Shown: positions 527 to 44,640 of the stretch, piece by piece
Layout of the letters: the number at the start of each line of letters is the position of its first letter
Numbering within the stretch: position 1 is the stretch's first letter
DNA from: an uncultured Candidatus Saccharibacteria bacterium
GTDB lineage: Bacteria; Patescibacteriota; Minisyncoccia; Sungbacterales; HO2-52-23
Assembly (NCBI GenBank): GCA_964373875.1
Contig: CAYJWH010000002.1
Span: forward strand, 1 to 44,640
DNA: 44,640 bases
Direction: 5' to 3'
Notes under the pieces: model-generated
The model's database searches: none
What the model saw: only the letters and a program-made list of their open reading frames with translations
Told to the model about the DNA's origin: nothing
Position numbers and translations under genes: made by a program

Positions 527-1972
<1,446 letters not shown>

Positions 1973-2307: not shown

Positions 2308-3261
2308 TCAGTTTTCTATGGATTCTTTACCGGCGGTAATCTCTACAAGCTCTCTCGTAATATTGGCTTGGCGCGCTTTATTATATACAAGCGTCAAATC
2401 AGTAATCAATTCTTTGGCATTATCCGAAGCGCTTTTCATGGCAATCATTCTTGCCGAATGCTCGGAAGCGTTAGATTCAAGAATTAAATGATGAATATGC
2501 ATTCGCAGAAGCTGGGGCACTAGCACTTCCAGAATTTCCGCGGGACTTGGCTCAAATTTATACTCGTATTGATAGATATTTTTTATCCGCGATTTTCCTT
2601 CGATTGTCGCGAATTTGCCGCGCTCCGGAAGTATGGAAATTACCATATCCCATATCCCCTCCTCGCTCACCGGAAGAATTTTTTTCAAGACTGCTTCCTG
2701 CAGAAGTGTCGTACGAAAATTGGTATAAACGGTTTCAACTTCATCAAAAGATTCGTCAAGAAATTTGCCAAGGATAAGATCGGCCACCGGCAAAGTATCT
2801 TCCAATTTGCTGTAATCCCCGAATCCCCAGAAACTTTCCAGTATTGGATATCGCTCTTCGTCCGAGGCGGATCCGCCTCGGACGAAGAAATATTCTTTGG
2901 CTTTCTTACCCACGGTAACAACAGAAAAAGAAATATCCGCGGATCGCTTTTGCAGGATCCATTGCTCAGCTTTTTTTATGACATTGGCGTTAAATGCTCC
3001 CGCAAGTCCTTTATCGGAAGTCACCACAATAAGTAGAGAATTTTTAACGTCTCTTTTTTGTAGAAGCGGAGGAAGTATTGGCATTCGCTTAATCAAATTT
3101 TCAAGCATCTCCAGTGAAGCTACCGCAAAAGGTCGGGCGTTCATGGCAAATTCCTGGGCTTTGCGCATTTTGGTTGCGGAAACTACTTCCATCGCTTTAG
3201 TGATTTGCGCGGTGCTTTTCGTTGATTTGATCCGTTGTTTGATTGCTTTGGTTGAGGGCAT
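2308..3261 (-). CDS. atpG: F1 ATP synthase gamma subunit
   Basis: 317 aa. The N-terminus IK.RI.S.K.T.QITKAME.VSA.KMRKAQ and the C-terminus SARM.AM..A.DNA..L...L.L.YNK.RQA.IT.EL.EI are gamma hallmarks. It overlaps the atpA stop by 1 nt. Confidence 0.95.
   Translation of the reverse strand: MPSTKAIKQRIKSTKSTAQITKAMEVVSATKMRKAQEFAMNARPFAVASLEMLENLIKRMPILPPLLQKRDVKNSLLIVVTSDKGLAGAFNANVIKKAEQWILQKRSADISFSVVTVGKKAKEYFFVRGGSASDEERYPILESFWGFGDYSKLEDTLPVADLILGKFLDESFDEVETVYTNFRTTLLQEAVLKKILPVSEEGIWDMVISILPERGKFATIEGKSRIKNIYQYEYKFEPSPAEILEVLVPQLLRMHIHHLILESNASEHSARMIAMKSASDNAKELITDLTLVYNKARQANITRELVEITAGKESIEN
2856..2887. repeat. Perfect 32-bp palindrome centred on GGATCC inside atpG
   Basis: CTTCGTCCGAGGCGGATCCGCCTCGGACGAAG is its own reverse complement. 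It encodes FVRGGSASDEE. A 16-mer CCGAGGCGGATCCGCC is shared with atpA (4658-4673). Confidence 0.85.
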
Positions 3262-4838
3262 TACAATTTTTTAAAATCTGCCAGTGCCTTTTTCAGAGCT
3301 TCTTCAACATCTTGCGGTAATTCGCCGGTTTCGCGGATTTTATCAAGAACTGCTTTTCGATGCATTTTTTCCAGATAATCCAAAAGTTTAGGTGCTTTGG
3401 TCTCTATTTCACTAGCGGGCATGTCATCAAGATATCCGTTTGTTCCGGCGTAGATCAAAACTACCTGTTTTTCAAAAGATACAGGAGTAAGTTCCGGCTG
3501 TTTTAGAAGTTCGGTAAGAACTTTGCCACGTTCAAGCCGTTTTCTGGTTGATTCATCAAGATCCGAAGCGAATTGGGCAAAAGCGGCAAGCTCTCGATAT
3601 TGCGCGAGTTCAAGACGCAGGCGTCCCGCGACTTTTTTCATGGCCTTGGTTTGCGCGGCTGAACCCACGCGCGATACCGAGAGTCCGACATTTACCGCCG
3701 GCCTGATACCCTGATAAAAAAGTTCCGGCTCAAGATAAATTTGCCCGTCAGTGATGGAAATTACATTGGTAGGAATATATGCCGACACGTCTCCGAGCTG
3801 AGTTTCAATAATCGGAAGCGCGGTCAGCGATCCTCCGCCATTTTCTTTATTTAATTTTGCAGCTCGCTCCAAAAGACGAGAATGCAGATAAAAAATGTCC
3901 CCGGGATAGGCCTCACGTCCGGGAGGACGACGCAGAAGCAAAGAAAGTTCGCGATAGGCCCAGGCGTGCTTGGAAAGGTCGTCGTAAATCACGAGCGCGT
4001 CTTTTCCCTGCGACATAAAATATTCTCCAATGGCTGTCGCCGCGTAGGGCGCTATATACCATAGAGTAGCCGGAATGGACGCGGGGGCGGATACTACTAT
4101 AGTGTAGTCCATTGCTCCGTGCTCTTTGAGAGTAGCTACTATTTTGGCAACCTTGGATTCTTTTTGGCCAATAGCCACATAAATGCATATAGGAATCCGG
4201 CCCTTGTGCTGATCACGGCCTTGATTAATAATCGTGTCAATCACAATAGAAGTTTTTCCAATTTGTCGATCTCCGATTATAAGCTCCCGCTGTCCACGCC
4301 CGATCGGAATCATAGAATCTATGGCTTTGATGCCGGTATGCAAGGGGGTGTTTACAGGTTCGCGCGCGGTTACTGAAGGCGCCAGGCGTTCTACCGGAAA
4401 ATAAACCCGCGGTGAGCTTGTCGAATCCGGTTCTTTTGAATTGGCGGAAAAAATCGGGCCGCGTCCATCTATTGGATTTCCCAAGGGATCCACTACTCTG
4501 CCGATCATTTCTTCTCCTACGCGGACAGAAAGCACCCGTCCGGTGGGCTTGACCACGTCTCCCTCTTTTACTTTCAAGTAATCACCGAGGATGATCGCGC
4601 CGATCGTGTCTTCCTCAAGATTAAAAGCAATGCCCTGCACGGGGCCAGTATCTCCGCCCGAGGCGGATCCGCCACTGGCGGAAAACTCAAGCATTTCCTG
4701 CGAGGCGGCTCCTGCAAGGCCGTAAATTTTGGCAATGCCGTCCCCGACTTCAAGAACATGGCCGATCTTTTCGGCTTTGATTTCCCTTTTGAAACCCTCA
4801 ATTTCTTTCTTTAAATTTTCAAGTATATAGTCGGGCAT
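3261..4838 (-). CDS. atpA: F1 ATP synthase alpha subunit
   Basis: 525 aa with Walker [10 protein letters not shown]. Conserved blocks [23 protein letters not shown] and PGREAYPGD are present. Confidence 0.97.
4654..4681. repeat. Imperfect 28-nt palindrome (core GGCGGATCCGCC) in frame inside atpA
   Basis: CCGCC-CGA-GGCGGATCCGCC-ACT-GGCGG. It encodes [10 protein letters not shown], which is extra relative to the canonical alpha N-domain. Confidence 0.6.
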
Positions 4839-4902: not shown

Positions 4903-4940
4903 AGTTACAAATGCCACGCTATAGCATGGCATTTGTAACT
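4903..4940 (-). terminator. 14-bp stem-loop; GCTATAGC-apex hairpin family copy 2
   Basis: AGTTACAAATGCCA / CGCTATAGCA / TGGCATTTGTAACT. It is downstream of the dksA-like gene and followed by a T-rich tract on the minus strand. Confidence 0.6.
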
Positions 4941-5524: not shown

Positions 5525-6628
5525 TTAAAGCCCTTCTTCCCGCAACTTTTCTATGGCTTCTTTTACTTTTTTGCTAATCCTTTTGGGTATATTTACTTTG
5601 ACTTCAATCAGCAGGTCTCCGCGCCCGTATCCGGAGGCGCTATAAGCTCCCTTGCCGCGAACTCTTAACACATCGCCCGGCTGTGTTCCTTCGGGAATTT
5701 TTAAACGGATATTGCCGTCAAGCGTTTCCACTTCTTTGGCTGTACCCAAAATAGCTTCGGTCAAAGGGACTGAAAGTTGCATCACAATATCATCGCCGTG
5801 GCGCAGAAATATCTCGTGCGAAAGCACACGGATTTTTATATATAAATCTCCGGGAGCGCTACCGGTTAGCGAGGCCTCGCCCTTGCCTGTCATTTTTAAA
5901 ATTTCGCCATCGCGTACTCCGCGCGGAACAAAGATCTCCAAATTTTCAGTAGATCGCACGACTCCCTGGCCCCGACATCCCGTACAGAGCGTTTCTGGCC
6001 TTTTGCCGGTTCCCACGCAATCCGGACAAGTAGAGACAGCCGTAAAAGAGCCCAAGAAAGTACGCTGTATTTTTTGTACATTGCCTTTTCCTTGGCAGGT
6101 TTTGCAGGACGTTTCTTTGGATCCCGGTTCTCCGCCAGAGCCCTTGCAGTGCTCGCACTGGATGAGTTTAGATATATCTACTGTTTCTTTGCCTCCAAAA
6201 ATTGATTCCTTGAATTGGATGGAAAGTTCGATTCTGATGTCTTTGCCTTTGCGGCCTCTAGTCTTGGCACGGGTACTGCCGCCAAATCCCGTACCCCCAA
6301 AAAAATCTTCAAAAACATCGCTAAAATCAAATTCTCCGCCCTCTCCCTCGGATCCAAAATCAAATTTAAATCCACCCGGCCACTCAAAGCCCCCTTGAAA
6401 CCCGCCACCGCCTCCTGCCCCCTCAAAGACTTGGCCAAATTGATCGTACTGCGACCTCTTGTTGTCGTCCGACAATACTCGATAAGCCTCGTTTACTTCT
6501 TTAAAACGCTCCCCATCTCCGCCTTTATCAGGGTGAAATTTATGCGCCAAAGCTCTATAAGCCTTTTTAATCTCTTCCTTGCTAGAGTTGCGGGCAACGC
6601 CAAGAGTTTTATAATAATCTTTGTTCAT
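5525..6628 (-). CDS. dnaJ: Chaperone DnaJ
   Basis: J-domain with HPD (KFHPDKG), a G/F-rich linker, and four CxxCxGxG repeats ([32 protein letters not shown]). Confidence 0.97.
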
Positions 6629-9494: not shown

Positions 9495-9788
9495 ATGATT
9501 CAGTTCTACTTGAGAATCCGCAGTTCCTTCGCTACTTTCCTTACCAACAATATCTATTGGCAGAAAGTTTTCGAAAATCTATTTGATGTTGTTGCCTCGG
9601 TGTTCATAAATTTTGGAGCATTTGTTATAGCTGCGAAGGTTGCACACTATTCCAGTTTGCTTGCTATTATACTCTTTCTTATCGGCATAACGTCTTTCGG
9701 CGCTTTTTTGCACGGACTTATCCGCCTGCTCATTTCCCACCATAAAGCAATAATGGATTTCCACCGACGGTGGAAGAAGCTCAACTGA
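9495..9788 (+). CDS. Hypothetical small membrane protein, opposite strand between dnaK and grpE
   Basis: 97 aa with two or three hydrophobic segments. GAGAGG lies 5 nt upstream of the ATG. Confidence 0.45.
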   Translation: MIQFYLRIRSSFATFLTNNIYWQKVFENLFDVVASVFINFGAFVIAAKVAHYSSLLAIILFLIGITSFGAFLHGLIRLLISHHKAIMDFHRRWKKLN

Positions 9789-15455: not shown

Positions 15456-16082
15456 ATGTATCCCAAACCCGTCGAGCGGCTAGTTGAATTATTCGCTAAA
15501 TTCCCGGGAATCGGCCCTCGTCAGGCGGCACGATTTGCCTTTTTTTTACTTAAAGGAAACGGAAACTTTCTAAATGACCTAATCTCTTCTTTAAAATTAC
15601 TCCAAGAGGGTGTGAGATTTTGTTCTCTCTGTTATCGTTCCATGGAAAGAAATGGAAACAAGCTCCATTGCAATTTATGTTTAGATGATAAGCGCGAAAA
15701 GACGCTTATTGCCGTAGTAGAAAAAGAATCCGATCTGCATAACATGGAAAGAACAAACGCCTACCGCGGAATCTACCACGTGCTTGGCGGGGTCATATCT
15801 CCTCTTGATCCGGACTCGCCCAAACAAATTCATTTGAAGGAATTGCACGCGCGAGTAACCGAGACGCTTTCGAAAAACGGAGATTGCGAGGTTATTTTGG
15901 CAACCAACCCGACGGCCGAAGGAGATACTACCGCGCTCTACATAGATCGCGTACTTGCCCCTTTGAAAGAAAAACATCCAAAACTGAAAATTTCGCGCCT
16001 GGGGCGGGGGCTTTCCCTCGGGTCCGAGTTGGAACATGTGGATGAGATAACGCTAAAAAGCGCTCTACACAACCGGAAATAA
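15456..16082 (+). CDS. recR: Recombination protein RecR
   Basis: 208 aa with L...F.K.PGIG.R.A.R.AF, a C4 zinc finger (CSLC...CNLC) and a Toprim-like region. Confidence 0.93.
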   Translation: MYPKPVERLVELFAKFPGIGPRQAARFAFFLLKGNGNFLNDLISSLKLLQEGVRFCSLCYRSMERNGNKLHCNLCLDDKREKTLIAVVEKESDLHNMERTNAYRGIYHVLGGVISPLDPDSPKQIHLKELHARVTETLSKNGDCEVILATNPTAEGDTTALYIDRVLAPLKEKHPKLKISRLGRGLSLGSELEHVDEITLKSALHNRK

Positions 16083-16085
16083 AAA

Positions 16086-16123
16086 AGTTACAAACGCAAT
16101 GCTATAGCTTGGCGTTTGTAACT
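16086..16123. terminator. Bidirectional terminator between recR and rplU; GCTATAGC-apex family copy 3
   Basis: AGTTACAAACGCAA / TGCTATAGCT / TGGCGTTTGTAACT, flanked by A6 on the left and T5 on the right. Confidence 0.7.
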
Positions 16124-16125
16124 TT

Positions 16126-16443
16126 TTAGCTCGTAATCTTTGATATCTCAACTTCCGTAAACGGTTGCCGGTGGCCCTTCTTTTTTCTGTACCGGGTCTT
16201 TGCATGATATTTGAAAACAATTACTTTATCTCCCCTACCCTGCTTTATGACTTTGGCCTCCACTTTAGCACCTGACACATGCGGCGTTCCTACTTCAACT
16301 TTTTTGTCGTCTCCGGCAAGAAGCACTTGATCAAAATTAAAGGCGTCGCCCTCTTTGGCATCCAATTTTTCGATTTTTAGTTTCTGGCCGGGAGTAACTA
16401 AATATTGTTTCCCGCCTGTTTTAATAACTGCGAATTGTTCCAT
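16126..16443 (-). CDS. rplU: 50S ribosomal protein L21
   Basis: 105 aa with FAVI..GGKQY.V..G............G........VLL and KV.VFKY..K..Y.KK.GHRQ. Confidence 0.95.
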   Translation of the reverse strand: MEQFAVIKTGGKQYLVTPGQKLKIEKLDAKEGDAFNFDQVLLAGDDKKVEVGTPHVSGAKVEAKVIKQGRGDKVIVFKYHAKTRYRKKKGHRQPFTEVEISKITS

Positions 16444-16548: not shown

Positions 16549-16560
16549 CTTGCCCAAGTG

Positions 16561-16592
16561 TACTCTAGTGATGCTATAGCATCACTAGAGTA
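16561..16592 (-). terminator. Perfect 32-nt palindrome 3' of rmuC; GCTATAGC-apex family copy 4
   Basis: TACTCTAGTGAT-GCTATAGC-ATCACTAGAGTA, 8 nt after the rmuC stop. Confidence 0.6.
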
Positions 16593-16599
16593 CGCCGAC

Positions 16600-22676: not shown

Positions 22677-22717
22677 CTTTCCTCACTTATTTGCTATAGC
22701 AGATAAGTGAGGGAAAG
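22677..22717 (+). terminator. Hairpin 3' of rpsR; GCTATAGC-apex family copy 5
   Basis: CTTTCCTCACTTAT-TTGCTATAGCAG-ATAAGTGAGGGAAAG, with one bulged base. Confidence 0.6.
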
Positions 22718-32353: not shown

Positions 32354-35300
32354 TTATTTAACCCTAGTTTTGGCCCGCATCGGTTTAATTTCTGCGACCG
32401 GTTTTCTATCTTCCACGCGCGGCTCTCCTTTCTTGATAATTTCCACATTCAGAGCCAGACCCTTAAGCTCATTCACCAGCACGTTGAAAGAGGCGGGAAT
32501 ATTCGGACTGCGAATCGGTTCGCCGTTAATAATTGCCTCATAAGTCGCGGATCGCCCCAAAACATCGTCTGATTTGATAGTAAGCATCTCCTGCAAAGTA
32601 TGCGCCGCCCCGTATCCTTCAAGGGCCCAAACCTCCATTTCGCCAAATCTCTGCCCTCCGAATTGAGCTTTTCCTCCAAGCGGCTGCTGGGTAATGAGCG
32701 AATAAGGACCGATGGAGCGCATGTGAATTTTGTCCTCCACCAGGTGGATAAGCTTCATTATGTACATGTACCCGACTGTAACTTTCTGGTTGAATTTCTC
32801 CCCGTTTCTTCCGTCAAAAAGCGTAACCTTTCCGTCGGAAGGAAGTCCGGCAGCCACAAGTTCCTTTTTTATTTCTTCCCCCAAAACCCCGGAGAGTGCC
32901 GGAGTTATGGCGCGGTATCCTAATTTTTTTGCCGCCCACCCAAGATGCGTTTCCAAAATTTGTCCAAGATTCATACGGGAAGCGACTCCCAATGGATTTA
33001 AAATCATTTCTACTGGTGTGCCATCTTCAAGGTGGGGCATTTCTTCTTCGGGAAGGATTTTGGCAACCACTCCTTTGTTTCCATGGCGTCCGGCAAGTTT
33101 GTCTCCCACGGCAATATTTCTAAATTGAGCTATATCCACCTGAACTTGCTTTATGACTCCGGCTTCCAACTTGTCTCCTTTTTCTCTGGAAAATACTTTG
33201 ACTGCCACCACCCTTCCACCTTTGCCGTGTGAAAGACGGAGCGAGGTATCTTTTACGTCGCGCGCTTTCTCACCGAAAATGGCCCGCAGAAGTTTTTCCT
33301 CCGGAGTAAGATCCGACTCTCCTTTGGGAGAAATTTTTCCAACTAGAATATCTCCTGACCGCACTTGGGCGCCAACGCGCACTATTCCGTCCTCGTCAAG
33401 ATTCTTCAGCTTTTCTTCCCCGACATTTGGAATGTCCGGAGTGGTTACTTCCGGACCGAGTTTGGTATCGCGAACATCAATGCTAAAATCCTCGATATGG
33501 ATCGAGCTATAGCGGTTGTCTTTAAGCAATCTTTCTGAAATGATAATGGCATCCTCGTAGTTAGCACCCGCCCAGGAAAGAAAAGCCACAAGTATATTTT
33601 GGCCAAGCGCCAGTTCTCCGCTATCAGTAGAAGAGCTGTCCGCCAAAAGATCGCCTTTTTTAACCTTTTGCCTCTTTTCGACAACCGGATGCTGGCGGAT
33701 AGCGGTAAAAGCATTGGTTCTTTGGAATTGCACAAGTTCGTATACATTGAGCCGTCCGCTTTTTCCCTTGACTACGATTTTTTTACCATCAACAACCTCG
33801 ACTACCCCGTCTTCTTCCGCCACTATGGTGCGTCCGGAATCTTTGGCCGCCCGATCTTCTACTCCCGTACCGACTAAGGGAGCTTGAGGCCGGACACATG
33901 GCACTGCTTGTCTTTGCATGTTTGAACCCATCATGGCGCGATTGGCGTCATCATGTTCAAGAAAAGGGATAAGACTGGTGGCAATACTGATGGCTTGCTG
34001 CGGAGTTACGTCCATATAATCAACTTCCTCACGCTTCACTACTCCCGGACTTCCGTGGATTCTCGCTTCAACTCGATCGTCAATAATATTTCCGTCTTTG
34101 TCGCTCGAAACTCCTGCGTGAGCAATCCGATACTGAATTTCCGCGGACGCGTCCAAATACTCCACTTCTCCGGTAAGTTTGCCATCTTTTACTTTGCGGT
34201 ACGGAGTTTCAATAAGGCCCAAAGCGTTGAGCCGCGCGTATCCCGCCAAGTGCCCGACAAGACCAATGTTTGGGCCTTCTGGAGTTTGAATAGGACAAAT
34301 TCTTCCATAGTGAGAGGGATGCACGTCGCGGACTTCAAAACCGGCTCGCTCTCTTTGCAGTCCTCCCGGACCCATCGCGGAAAGCCGGCGCTTATGCTCA
34401 AGTTCGGAAAGAGGATTTACTTGATCCATAAACTGCGACAATTGGGAAGAAGTAAAGAATTCCTTTACGGCGGCCATAAAAGGCCGGGCGTTGATCAACT
34501 GAGCAGGAGTAATCGTAAACGGGTCAAGGGTCGACATCCGATCTTTGATAATTCTTGCCATTCGTGCCACTCCGACTCGAAGTTTGTTTTGCAAAAGTTC
34601 TCCCACTCCCCTGACTCTTCGATTGCCGAGGTGATCAATATCGTCAGCCGGAGCATCTCCTAATTGGTTCAAACGCGCAATTTCCCTAAGCACGTTGATC
34701 AAGTCTTCCGCTTGAAGAACTCTTGAACTATTACCCTTAGAATTGGGTAGTTTTAGACGCTGGTTGAATTTATACCGTCCCACTTCTGCCAAATCGTATC
34801 GGTCAGAACTAAACATGGATTGGATGAGTGAGCGCGCGTTATCTACGGTGGCAAGGTCTCCGGGACGAATTCTCTTGTATATTTCAATAAAAGACTCATC
34901 AGCAGTATGGGAGGGATCTTTTTCCAATGTCTTTTTTATATAGGACATGCTGCCCGGATCAAGGTCTTTGAATGCTTCCAGAATTTTTTCTGAATGAGAT
35001 AAGCCGAAAATACGCAAAAGAGAAGTCGCGGGGATCTTTCTTTTTCGGTCGATTTTTACGTTAATCGAGTCGTCAAGATCTGTTTCAAACTCAAGCCAAG
35101 CCCCGCGATTGGGAATTATTTTTGCTCCGAAATATTTTCGTCCCCGTGCCGCGTAATTTGTAAAATAAACGCCGGAGGAACGAATAAGCTGTGACACCAC
35201 TACTCTCTCCACGCCGTTTACCACAAAAGTTCCGCGAGGCGTCATCAAAGGAAAATCGCCAAGATAAATTTCCTGCTCCTTTACTTCTTTTGTTTTTTTA

Positions 35301-43824: not shown

Positions 43825-44640
43825 TTATTCTGTATGGATTAAAATTCCATTGGCAAAATAGTTTTCTGTCTCCGTGCGTATCGTATAAAGCAATTTGGTG
43901 GAGCTCCGCACGCTGACTTTAACGACAACTTTCTCCTTGAGCATACCATCGCTACCAAGAAACAGAATATCTCCGGGAAGAATATTCTCGGCCCTTTTCC
44001 ATCCCTGTGGAGTAAGCAGGCGATGATCTCCGGTCATTTCAAGTTCCGTATCCAATGTCGCGATTACAAATAGTGGCGGATGGTCATTTTGATCATGGCG
44101 CAGAACTTCTAAAACAGGTACTTTGCGAATTTGTTTTTCTTTCAAAGAATATCCTAATACCATGTCCCCTGTCTTAATTTCTTCAATTGTCTTTGTTGAG
44201 CCGTCCGCAAGCAATATTTGAGTTCCCTCAACTACGCAAAAACCGCCACCACCATCACCAGGTGCACCCCCATCACCTTCGCCGGCACCTGTTCCGCCCG
44301 TACCTGCACCCCCGCCAGCGTCTGCTCCTCCACCCGGGCCTGATCCTTCACTGCCACTAGTATCGCTACTTTCGCCAGTAGGAGATGAACCTGGCGCTCC
44401 TCCCTCTCCCTCTGCGGCGGCGGCGGCATTACCGGCAGCAACTCCCGCTGCTGCGGCGGCAGCAGAGGCTGCAGCTGCAGCAGCGTCGGCATTACCAGAG
44501 GCTGCTGCATCAGCGGCTGCAGCAGCGGCGGCGGCTGCGTCAGCTGCGGCAGTAGCTGCAGCAGCGGCTGCATCGGTATTACCAGAGGCCGCAGCTGCTG
44601 TTGCCGAGGCCGCAGCTGCTGTTGCCGAGGCCGCAGCTGC
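43825..44640 (-). CDS. Partial CDS (N-terminus off-window): Ala/Gly low-complexity region followed by a C-terminal Hint (intein-like) domain
   Basis: The frame of ORF 43825-44214 stays open to the window edge. The Hint domain starts at Cys 44238-44236 (GGGGF/CVVEGTQILLADGSTKTIEEI). TGDH (TxxH) is present, and the protein ends NGILIHTE*. Confidence 0.8.
   Translation of the reverse strand, partial: AAAASATAAAASATAAAASGNTDAAAAAATAAADAAAAAAAAADAAASGNADAAAAAASAAAAAAGVAAGNAAAAAEGEGGAPGSSPTGESSDTSGSEGSGPGGGADAGGGAGTGGTGAGEGDGGAPGDGGGGFCVVEGTQILLADGSTKTIEEIKTGDMVLGYSLKEKQIRKVPVLEVLRHDQNDHPPLFVIATLDTELEMTGDHRLLTPQGWKRAENILPGDILFLGSDGMLKEKVVVKVSVRSSTKLLYTIRTETENYFANGILIHTE
44401..44640. repeat. GC-rich tandem/degenerate coding repeats (GCNGCN runs; 21-nt unit GCCGAGGCCGCAGCTGCTGTT)
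   Basis: The unit at 44603-44623 repeats at 44624 onward, with a near copy at 44582-44602. GG(C/T)ATTACC(A/G)G recurs at about 44426, 44488 and 44575. It encodes poly-Ala punctuated by S/T/D/GN. Confidence 0.85.

Follow-up and report, generated by a model that had tools for sequence, protein, structure and literature searches.

Why do two genes of the same F1 ATP synthase, atpG (gamma subunit) and atpA (alpha subunit), carry related GC-rich palindromes in frame within their coding sequences? The genes lie in an uncultured Candidatus Saccharibacteria bacterium, at positions 1 to 44,640 of contig CAYJWH010000002.1 (assembly GCA_964373875.1); this whole stretch of 44,640 nucleotides, with a G+C content of ~45%, is referred to below as the window. 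The source names of its closest homologues suggest a Candidatus Sungbacteria-like member of the Patescibacteria (candidate phyla radiation). We consider it probable that both palindromes are copies of a very small selfish palindromic insertion DNA, representing a new family akin to the repetitive extragenic palindromic (REP) sequences and the Rickettsia palindromic elements (RPEs). The window contains two intact copies of this 30-bp element and, to judge from its position and its TCCGCC arm, one remnant, all within F1 ATP synthase genes. The element inserts exactly and without target-site duplication, displays a target bias and a phase filter, follows a route of decay, is broadly distributed and is conserved at the nucleotide level. 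The features on which the analysis is based are the following:

527–1969, minus strand: atpD.
2308–3261, minus strand: atpG, F1 gamma subunit, 317 amino acids, identified by Pfam PF00231 homologues; carries element copy 1.
2855–2888: perfect 34-bp palindrome (100% complementary) made up of copy 1 and the partly palindromic target bases TC/GA.
2857–2886: element copy 1, 30 bp, in atpG, TTCGTC-CGA-GGCGGA / TCCGCC-TCG-GACGAA, both half-units located.
3261–4838, minus strand: atpA, F1 alpha subunit, 525 amino acids, identified by PDB alpha chains (E ~1e-200); carries copy 2 and the remnant.
4440–4448, minus strand: putative decayed remnant of a third copy, TCCGCCAAT, in the second atpA loop, directly 3' of the Phe130 codon.
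4653–4682: element copy 2, 30 bp, in atpA, TCCGCC-CGA-GGCGGA / TCCGCC-ACT-GGCGGA, an exact insertion relative to loci L001 and L003.

The original prediction described a perfect 32-bp palindrome in atpG at 2856–2887. The sequence CTTCGTCCGAGGCGGATCCGCCTCGGACGAAG is indeed found there, but the perfect palindrome extends to 34 bp, the TC/GA target bases lengthening it by chance; a perfect palindrome of this size is calculated to occur by chance ~1e-5 times in 44.6 kb. Translation of the minus strand places it in frame in atpG, where it encodes FVRGGSASDEE, as had been proposed, the copy itself contributing F-V-R-G-G-S-A-S-D-E; the related atpA site and its peptide were likewise recovered by translation of atpA. 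This second site is a quasi-palindrome, TCCGCCCGAGGCGGATCCGCCACTGGCGGA, with a self-complementarity of 89%, and the 16-mer CCGAGGCGGATCCGCC is common to both (2862–2877 and 4658–4673). The 12-mer GGCGGATCCGCC occurs twice in the window against 0.14 occurrences expected. The unit behind both sites is a 30-bp head-to-head dimer of a 15-nt hairpin: a unit TCCGCC-NRA-GGCGGA abuts its own reverse complement, which creates a GGATCC centre. An exact-protein lookup with the AtpG protein of the window returned no record.

The closest orthologues (L001, L002 and L003; L labels denote recovered loci) were retrieved from public assemblies and aligned with the window, so that filled sites could be compared with empty ones. 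In atpG, the empty site reads AAA GAA TAT TTC / GAG CGC (L002, L003) and the filled one TAT TTC [TTC GTC CGA GGC GGA TCC GCC TCG GAC GAA] GAG CGA; in atpA, the empty site reads GAG TTT / GAT ACT (L001, L003) and the filled one GAG TTT [TCC GCC AGT GGC GGA TCC GCC TCG GGC GGA] GAT ACT. Each insertion thus measures exactly 30 bp, and the junction bases permit no shift of its boundaries. Each copy is preceded by a Phe codon (TTY) and followed by a GAN codon. The element is therefore inserted DNA, and the empty sites are intact in orthologues. At the three sites for which an empty site is available for comparison, no target-site duplication is present, the insertions being exactly 30 (or 15) bp long. 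At the protein level, the alpha insertion corresponds to an 11-residue alignment gap in the N-terminal β-barrel domain of the PDB alpha chains, in keeping with the longer segment described in the original prediction, and to a 10-codon insertion (net gain of eight residues) relative to the closest orthologues; the gamma insertion corresponds to an eight-residue gap relative to the PDB gamma chains, after a conserved RG. As a separate observation, several non-coding or off-phase copies elsewhere (L067:2400-2620, L069:7340-7420, L068:7570-7640, L043:4720-4800 and L007:1-140) coincide exactly with the junctions between units of heptamer tandem repeats; the heptamers around such copies (AAAAGTC, GAAGATT, AAATCTT, GGCTGTA) mimic a 7-bp duplication and are really tandem arrays.

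The anatomy of the element was drawn from 123 unique copies in genomes. Their stems hardly vary at all, and this holds also for the four positions left degenerate in the scan pattern (a family-wide figure partly shaped by ascertainment, as discussed below); unbiased evidence on the stems comes from the copies reached via AtpA or AtpG protein homology. The element begins with TCCG and ends with CGGA in 118–123 of the 123 copies. Loop 1 is N-R-A, with A at position 9 in 115 copies, and loop 2 is T-Y-N, with T at position 22 in 116, so that each half reads TCCGCC-NRA-GGCGGA on its own strand. At the DNA or RNA level, two folds are open to the element, a pair of 6-bp hairpins or a single long one. 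The atpG copy is predicted to form a 16-bp hairpin (RNA, -30.8 kcal/mol, z -6.9; DNA, -19.7 kcal/mol, z -6.8) and the atpA copy two 6-bp hairpins as DNA and one interrupted hairpin as RNA (-23.4 kcal/mol). The two loops are exactly complementary in only 23 of the 123 copies; as a rule, then, the long hairpin is interrupted, and the perfect atpG palindrome of the window belongs to a minority class (~20%). The 15-nt unit was found as 131 doublets and 23 singlets and never as a triplet, which rules out a variable tandem or slippage array. In the window, two single half-unit-like hairpins, GCCGCC-AAA-GGCGGC and TCCACC-GAC-GGTGGA, with compensated stem changes, are present at 75–89 and 9760–9774; altogether, four extra half-unit-like matches with at most two mismatches were seen, against ~1 expected by chance.

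Such an anatomy is what one would predict if the element were a scar of break repair, in which an enzyme adds a 15-nt hairpin-forming tail to both 3' ends of a TTT/AAA-like break, followed by fill-in and joining: the halves would be head to head, the loops would be made separately and the target would not be duplicated. The same-strand reading of each half, the scarcity of exactly complementary loops, the strict limitation to two units, the lack of target-site duplication and the symmetry of the target (see below) all agree with this scenario. It is weakened by the fact that the loops are not independent: in two independent copy sets, the middle base of the loop differs between the halves (NGA versus NAA) more often than expected (64 observed versus 46.5 expected and 63 versus 45.4, p ~0.001 each), and perfect palindromes are above expectation as well. 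Moreover, orthologous copies inherit their loops stably, single units found where relatives have full elements fit deletion, and we know of no enzyme that adds such a hairpin tail. All in all, we regard a repair scar as quite improbable.

The element is by no means confined to the window. When species-representative genomes (596 Gb) were scanned with YCGYCNNNGGCGGATCCGCCNNNGRCGR, at least 120 matches were obtained, against a calculated ~1 expected by chance. The matches listed are all metagenome-assembled genomes (MAGs), some with long-read contigs of 0.7–1.6 Mb, and, according to the titles of the MAG records, they include about twenty classes of the candidate phyla radiation (CPR), Omnitrophota, Kiritimatiellae, Verrucomicrobiota, Lentisphaerae, Planctomycetes, Ignavibacteriota, Chloroflexota, Margulisiibacteriota, Firestonebacteria, Auribacterota, some Firmicutes and 'uncultured Gammaproteobacteria'; one match, L115 (Actinomycetota), appears to have arisen by chance in GC-rich DNA. 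When TAYTTY was additionally demanded upstream, a scan of metagenomes gave many matches, their count being a lower bound, and more than 240 fetched loci, from many phyla, carry the 30-mer. The variant specific to the window, TTCGTC...GACGAA, had no match in the metagenome scan, so that no second assembly of this exact allele was obtained; a blastn search of E. coli genomes gave no match, a weak control given the 38-nt query. Identical copies are present in independent assemblies (e.g. L036, L156 and L215), and contigs with identical or 85–97% identical flanks usually carry identical loops; the pairing of like flanks with like loops indicates vertical inheritance, and recovery from several separate assemblies means that the element has been reproduced independently. 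Viral contigs (IMG/VR) contained only two matches, leaving a phage vector unsupported.

This distribution disposes of a local origin. Perfect palindromes can arise by template switching and the atpA copy is in itself a 15-bp tandem repeat, so that template switching, quasi-palindrome correction or slippage in a Gly/Ser loop could be invoked for the window, with the shared 16-mer put down to coincidence or gene conversion. The occurrence of the same 30-mer in this many loci and phyla, the occupation of the same sites in other lineages and the absence of arrays of three or more units leave such an explanation with practically no probability, and we consider it refuted by the collection scans. 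In some Kiritimatiellae and Verrucomicrobia MAGs (L009:4569-4752 and 6390-6572, and also L006, L033 and L058), the 30-mer lies inside an intergenic repeat of ~185 bp that also holds the hairpin repeat GTCATTCCGAGCGTAG, i.e. different hairpin repeats are nested. The two L009 copies, 1.8 kb apart, were considered as possible ends of an insertion sequence (IS), a notion rejected since they are parts of this 185-bp repeat.

The position of the copies relative to reading frames is strongly biased. Among 125 copies, 81 lie in frame 0 of open reading frames (ORFs) of at least 80 codons, where they read S-A-x-G-G-S-A-x-G-G; the other two phases, RRRIRLRRK and PPKADPPLA, account for 11 and 15 copies, respectively, and 18 lie in no ORF. 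Coding copies thus clearly outnumber intergenic ones. When only ORFs with 300 or more codons are counted, the phase ratio is 55:6:3, compared with 40:29:31% for target-like hexamers in the same ORFs (chi-square p = 4e-13); the phase bias of the element is consequently not a by-product of target phase and suggests that copies are purged after insertion or that the process is codon-aware. The coding orientation is also uneven (39 copies reading SA[K/E]GGSA[S]GG versus 12 in the reverse orientation, SA[R/G]GGSA[F/L]GG). Hosts identified by Pfam are RpoC, RpoB, DNA polymerase III alpha (DnaE), PheT (two copies), AtpD, class I and class II tRNA synthetases, Mfd, UvrB and ArsA, and orthologous sites recur in metagenomes, for instance in TsaD, a class I tRNA synthetase, a QueD-like protein and a glycosyltransferase. 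Two host proteins contain an additional domain: the class I tRNA synthetase of L036 (4843–7077) has an internal histidine-phosphatase domain, and the PheT of L020 (4444–6930) an inserted NlpC/P60 domain.

The phase bias also bears on whether the palindromes could be artefacts of assembly, chimerism or adaptors. The matches listed are all MAGs or metagenome contigs and the centre of the element is a BamHI site, as expected of a linker, but the copies are in frame and phase-biased, same-site copies in independent samples have diverged together with their host genes, and identical copies come from independent assemblies and long-read MAGs. An artefact is therefore virtually discounted, being refuted for practical purposes.

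The insertion site is defined as well. The flanks fit the consensus TT(T/C/G) / (A/G/C)AA, i.e. a T-rich / A-rich junction, with T at -2 in 86% of the copies, T or C at -1 in 86%, A at +2 in 77% and A at +3 in 60%. Both flanks fit at once, giving a symmetric target, in 84 of 125 copies, and the hexamers TTC/AAA, TTT/AAA and TTG/AAA are 55–84 fold over background. These bases are not part of the element, since empty sites already have them. Within genes, the usual junction is a Phe codon followed by a Lys, Glu or Asp codon: of 86 coding copies, 38 follow a Phe codon and 42 precede a Lys codon. The three sites related to the window (YF/E, EF/D and IF/K) match the target pattern.

How the atpG and atpA sites came to be occupied is told in part by their homologues, most of which lack the element. 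The atpG position is occupied in only four of 120 AtpG homologues (the window, L001, L129 and L130), and a fifth, P0033, carries a half-unit (YF-SARGG-ERYP). By pairwise identity, the carriers do not form a clade: L129 and L130 are 58% identical, and about 100 empty orthologues are closer to the window than either of them; this test is qualified by the relationships among the window, L001, L002 and L003, which are effectively an unresolved trichotomy. All four copies at this site have the loop CGA, which is rare in the general sample (7 of 123 copies), and an ER-YP motif 3' of the element is common to the window, L001 and P0033, suggesting that alleles may also spread or persist by descent or recombination. 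A recombination mosaic at the atpG copy was considered and set aside: identity between the window and L001 peaks at and just downstream of the element, the distinctive tract of ~21 nt not being significant.

At atpA site 1, the loops are AGT/TCG in the window, GAA/TCC in L126 and AGA/TCT in L127, and L128 carries a half-unit with the rare AGT loop of the window. In the second atpA loop, L128 has a full copy, L001 a half-unit (TCTGCCGAAGGCGGA) and the window the remnant, and L003 and L124 are empty. The coexistence of full copies, half-units and a remnant at atpA indicates that copies persist, lose one 15-bp unit and erode; the half-units of L128, L001 and P0033 and the remnant in the window make up a decay series.

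Further lineage-specific loop expansions are visible nearby. Around 4380–4450 of the window (atpA residues ~131–148), there is a loop of 16 residues (8–13 in relatives), which includes a 27-nt stretch found only in the window, and the N-terminus of AtpD (residues ~19–31) displays a 13-residue expansion at the loop where L105 has a 30-bp element; these two expansions could be old, fully decayed insertions. In addition, we came across a second palindromic family, with 13-bp terminal inverted repeats (CCCCGTTAGAAGT...ACTTCTAACGGGG) and a hairpin-rich variable interior of 29–125 bp, which in frame translates as PVRS...TSNGV (L124:4376-4447, L125:823-870, L014:1489-1583, L060:3442-3509, L062:5766-5794, L126:18765-18835 and L130:460-584). 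In the AtpG homologues P0048 and P0054, it occupies the YF/ERRG junction used by the 30-bp element, and it accompanies that element in DnaE (L060) and ArsA (L062); a solo arm is present at ~147–159 of the window.

If the element is conserved for its DNA or RNA and not for its peptide, then its stems should be spared where synonymous positions of the host gene have diverged. In the shared codons of the atpG carriers, fourfold-degenerate third positions are only 16–34% identical, i.e. saturated (51% between the window and L001), whereas all eight stem third-codon positions are identical in every atpG carrier, and likewise in the atpA copies. The stem bases are thus conserved at the nucleotide and not at the peptide level. 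The atpG copies of the window and L001 differ by five bases, four of which result from a change of TCCGCC to TTCGTC and the mirror change of GGCGGA to GACGAA. All four are nonsynonymous substitutions at the second position of a codon (S to F, A to V, G to D and G to E) and compensate each other pairwise; the calculated chance of finding two complementary symmetric pairs among five changes is ~0.002–0.005. Context-specific mutation, e.g. deamination at methylated C, could nevertheless hit both arms without selection, since the arms are the same sequence on opposite strands.

These data also eliminate convergence of unrelated proteins on a Gly/Ser linker: codon choice is fixed across genomes with saturated synonymous sites, which excludes selection on the peptide only, and the changes in the window alter the peptide and keep the pairing. 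We give such convergence essentially no credence. Together with the exact insertions and the use of the same 30-mer and codons in hundreds of unrelated genes, they bear out the original prediction that a DNA-level element, and not protein-level conservation, underlies the two palindromes; neither are the residues concerned ancestral, nor is the motif anywhere near unique.

Conserved pairing may instead reflect a function, namely a cis-acting hairpin selected for host benefit and spread by recombination rather than by transposition; it could act in mRNA as a pausing signal, a stability determinant or a protein-binding site, or in DNA as a palindromic operator or a GATC/GGATCC site. The invariant stem third positions on a saturated background, the compensatory double changes in the window copy, the high stability of the hairpins, the CGA loop and ER-YP motif shared by atpG alleles and the excess of A/G loop heterodimers, by which the long hairpin is interrupted non-randomly, are all in line with this possibility. 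A hairpin of use to its host is nonetheless hardly expected in unrelated genes, arbitrary loops and intergenic DNA, to be missing from most orthologues and to decay to half-units and remnants, and the symmetric C-to-T changes may come from context-dependent mutation. In addition, no Rfam family was matched at gathering score by the window or five other loci, and nothing relevant appeared at E <= 1 around the two window copies. We therefore consider a selected function unlikely, though less so than a repair scar.

The insertion of a selfish element accounts best for these observations. In such a scheme, the element would be a non-autonomous DNA placed in trans by a structure-specific enzyme and translated as part of the host protein; copies would survive in essential genes since a loop can accommodate ten small flexible residues, those in the two other phases would be purged, and hairpin pairing would be kept by a constraint acting on the nucleic acid or by homogenisation. 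Several points weigh against it. (i) No mobilising gene was found, and no neighbour family recurs around 240 copies: when 2535 ORFs taken from the 8-kb tiles that surround the copies were clustered all against all, only housekeeping families emerged. (ii) We found no near-identical pair of genomes differing only by the element, hence no sign of current mobility. (iii) Copy number per genome is apparently low (as a rough estimate, the 0.9 Mb of sequence flanking the copies holds ~5 further ones), which is odd for a selfish repeat. (iv) It is difficult to see how lineage-specific transposases would give near-identical stems in different phyla; in this respect, the scan patterns fixed the stem sequence, so that the family-wide invariance is partly a matter of ascertainment, and some MAGs, and with them their phylum labels, may be mis-binned. 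(v) The common CGA loop of the atpG carriers, which are dispersed among more than 100 empty orthologues, fits descent or transfer of an allele better than repeated fresh insertion.

A bolder reading, to which we give tentative and clearly lesser weight, is that of a previously undescribed cross-phylum class of 30-bp double-hairpin elements, written without target-site duplication into essential genes and with their pairing actively maintained. They could be placed by a structure-specific enzyme at TTT/AAA-like junctions or arise by a symmetric process in which the two ends of a break each receive a 15-nt hairpin, and their pairing would be held in coding sequence by selection or homogenisation; the element would then be new mobile DNA or a repair product and not a small REP or miniature inverted-repeat transposable element (MITE).

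Some other features of the window and of related contigs deserve mention. Palindromes centred on GCTATAGC occur six times in the window against 0.41 expected (211–240, 4903–4940, 16082–16127, 16560–16593, 22678–22715 and also 33506–33513); at five of these sites, the motif is the centre of a 30–46-bp inverted repeat with arms that differ from site to site. They are found just 3' of genes, for example in the atpH–atpA interval and after an ORF ending at 265, and possibly represent terminator-like or 3'-end hairpins in which the loop is conserved. Several Sungbacteria-like contigs have extra small ORFs with no Pfam match in the atpA–atpG or the atpG–atpD interval (L124:2699-3996, L126:12511-13068 and L127:2817-3092). 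Finally, the end of the window (44435–44640) is of low complexity, rich in GCTGCAGC and GCGGC, with many overlapping imperfect inverted repeats, and is probably an Ala-rich coding repeat.

At 30 bp, the element favoured here would be among the smallest insertion elements known. Its host genes include rpoB, rpoC, dnaE, atpA/D/G and tRNA synthetase genes, in lineages that form much of uncultivated bacterial diversity, where it enlarges and diversifies surface loops of core enzymes; it thereby affects orthologue alignments and phylogenies of CPR proteins and can readily serve as a marker of loops that permit insertion. That more than 10 phyla share a near-identical sequence implies a broadly shared mobilising activity or horizontal spread, and pairing kept within coding sequence offers a clean natural test of nucleic-acid versus protein-level constraint. 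By bringing in a BamHI/GATC site and an mRNA hairpin of up to -31 kcal/mol, the element may also affect translation, restriction and DNA stability.

The element has apparently not been described so far. A full-text literature search for GGCGGATCCGCC returned cloning primers only, and among the searchable literature, searches by concept returned papers on RPEs, REPs, MITEs, palindromic amphipathic repeat coding elements (PARCELs) and byps, and none on a 30-bp element.

In form, it is closest to mitochondrial GC clusters and double-hairpin elements. Mitochondrial GC clusters, the double-hairpin elements of Allomyces and the byps of Magnusiomyces are small, GC-rich, two-hairpin sequences of AT-richer genomes, inserted at AT-rich sites, sometimes in coding sequence. 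All of these are, however, organellar, of variable length and often not a multiple of three, whereas the present element is bacterial, exactly 30 nt long and open in frame. Furthermore, byps and the insert of T4 gene 60 are skipped by the ribosome between matched take-off and landing codons; the codons that flank the element (TTC...GAG and TTT...GAT) are unmatched. Related work on mitochondrial elements and on bypassing is available (PMC4478555 and PMC5009743, respectively).

The lack of target-site duplication calls to mind elements that move by other routes. 'Peel-and-paste' elements of the IS200/IS605 type and their palindrome-associated derivatives (PATEs) rely on hairpin recognition, generate no target-site duplication and allow precise excision. 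Precise excision of this type would explain patchy presence at one site. However, these elements recognise a tetra- or pentanucleotide on one side only, 3' of which they insert, and their hairpins are subterminal and accompanied by guide sequences, whereas the hairpins of the 30-bp element reach both its ends and its target is symmetric in the majority of copies given above. Prokaryotic MITEs (Correia, ERIC, Coxiella QMITE) are non-autonomous inverted-repeat elements that can give in-frame fusions (PMC10969869, PMC5896051); they are usually at least 100 bp long and combine terminal inverted repeats with internal sequence and a target-site duplication, unlike an element that comprises 30 bp in all and leaves no duplication.

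In behaviour, the element is closest to RPEs and intragenic REPs (PMC10969869, PMC3733652). RPEs are palindromic repeats present in frame in many unrelated genes, including housekeeping ones, with a peptide judged compatible with the protein fold (reviewed in PMC10969869); they are ~100–150 bp long, restricted to Rickettsia, divided into about ten families and tagged by CGTC at the end (PMC3733652). The present element is likewise found in frame in unrelated ORFs, but it is much shorter, has no tag and displays identical stems in CPR, Omnitrophota, the Planctomycetes–Verrucomicrobia–Chlamydiae group and other phyla. REPs, along with the derived bacterial interspersed mosaic elements (BIMEs) and REPINs, are GC-rich imperfect palindromes of 20–40 bp, often in inverted pairs and sometimes inside replication or repair genes, with a GTAG or CGTC tetranucleotide at one end (PMC3733652). 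Its length, within this range, and its stem-loop-forming palindrome liken the element to REPs. REPs are moved by RAYT tyrosine transposases, whose cognate genes are REP-flanked, and are mostly extragenic, high-copy and lineage-specific; the element, in contrast, has no GTAG/CGTC tag, lies mostly in ORFs at a low apparent copy number and has no associated gene in the ORF clustering of the 8-kb tiles. PARCELs are palindromic coding repeats horizontally distributed among diverse microbes (PMC2996958), but they are intragenic tandem repeats that encode an amphipathic motif and are described as giving rise to surface phenotypes, notably in Mollicutes, rather than single 30-bp insertions in housekeeping enzymes. 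Compared to the palindromic selfish DNA already known in ORFs, what is unusual here is the extreme smallness of the element, its conservation across phyla and the maintenance of its pairing within essential genes.

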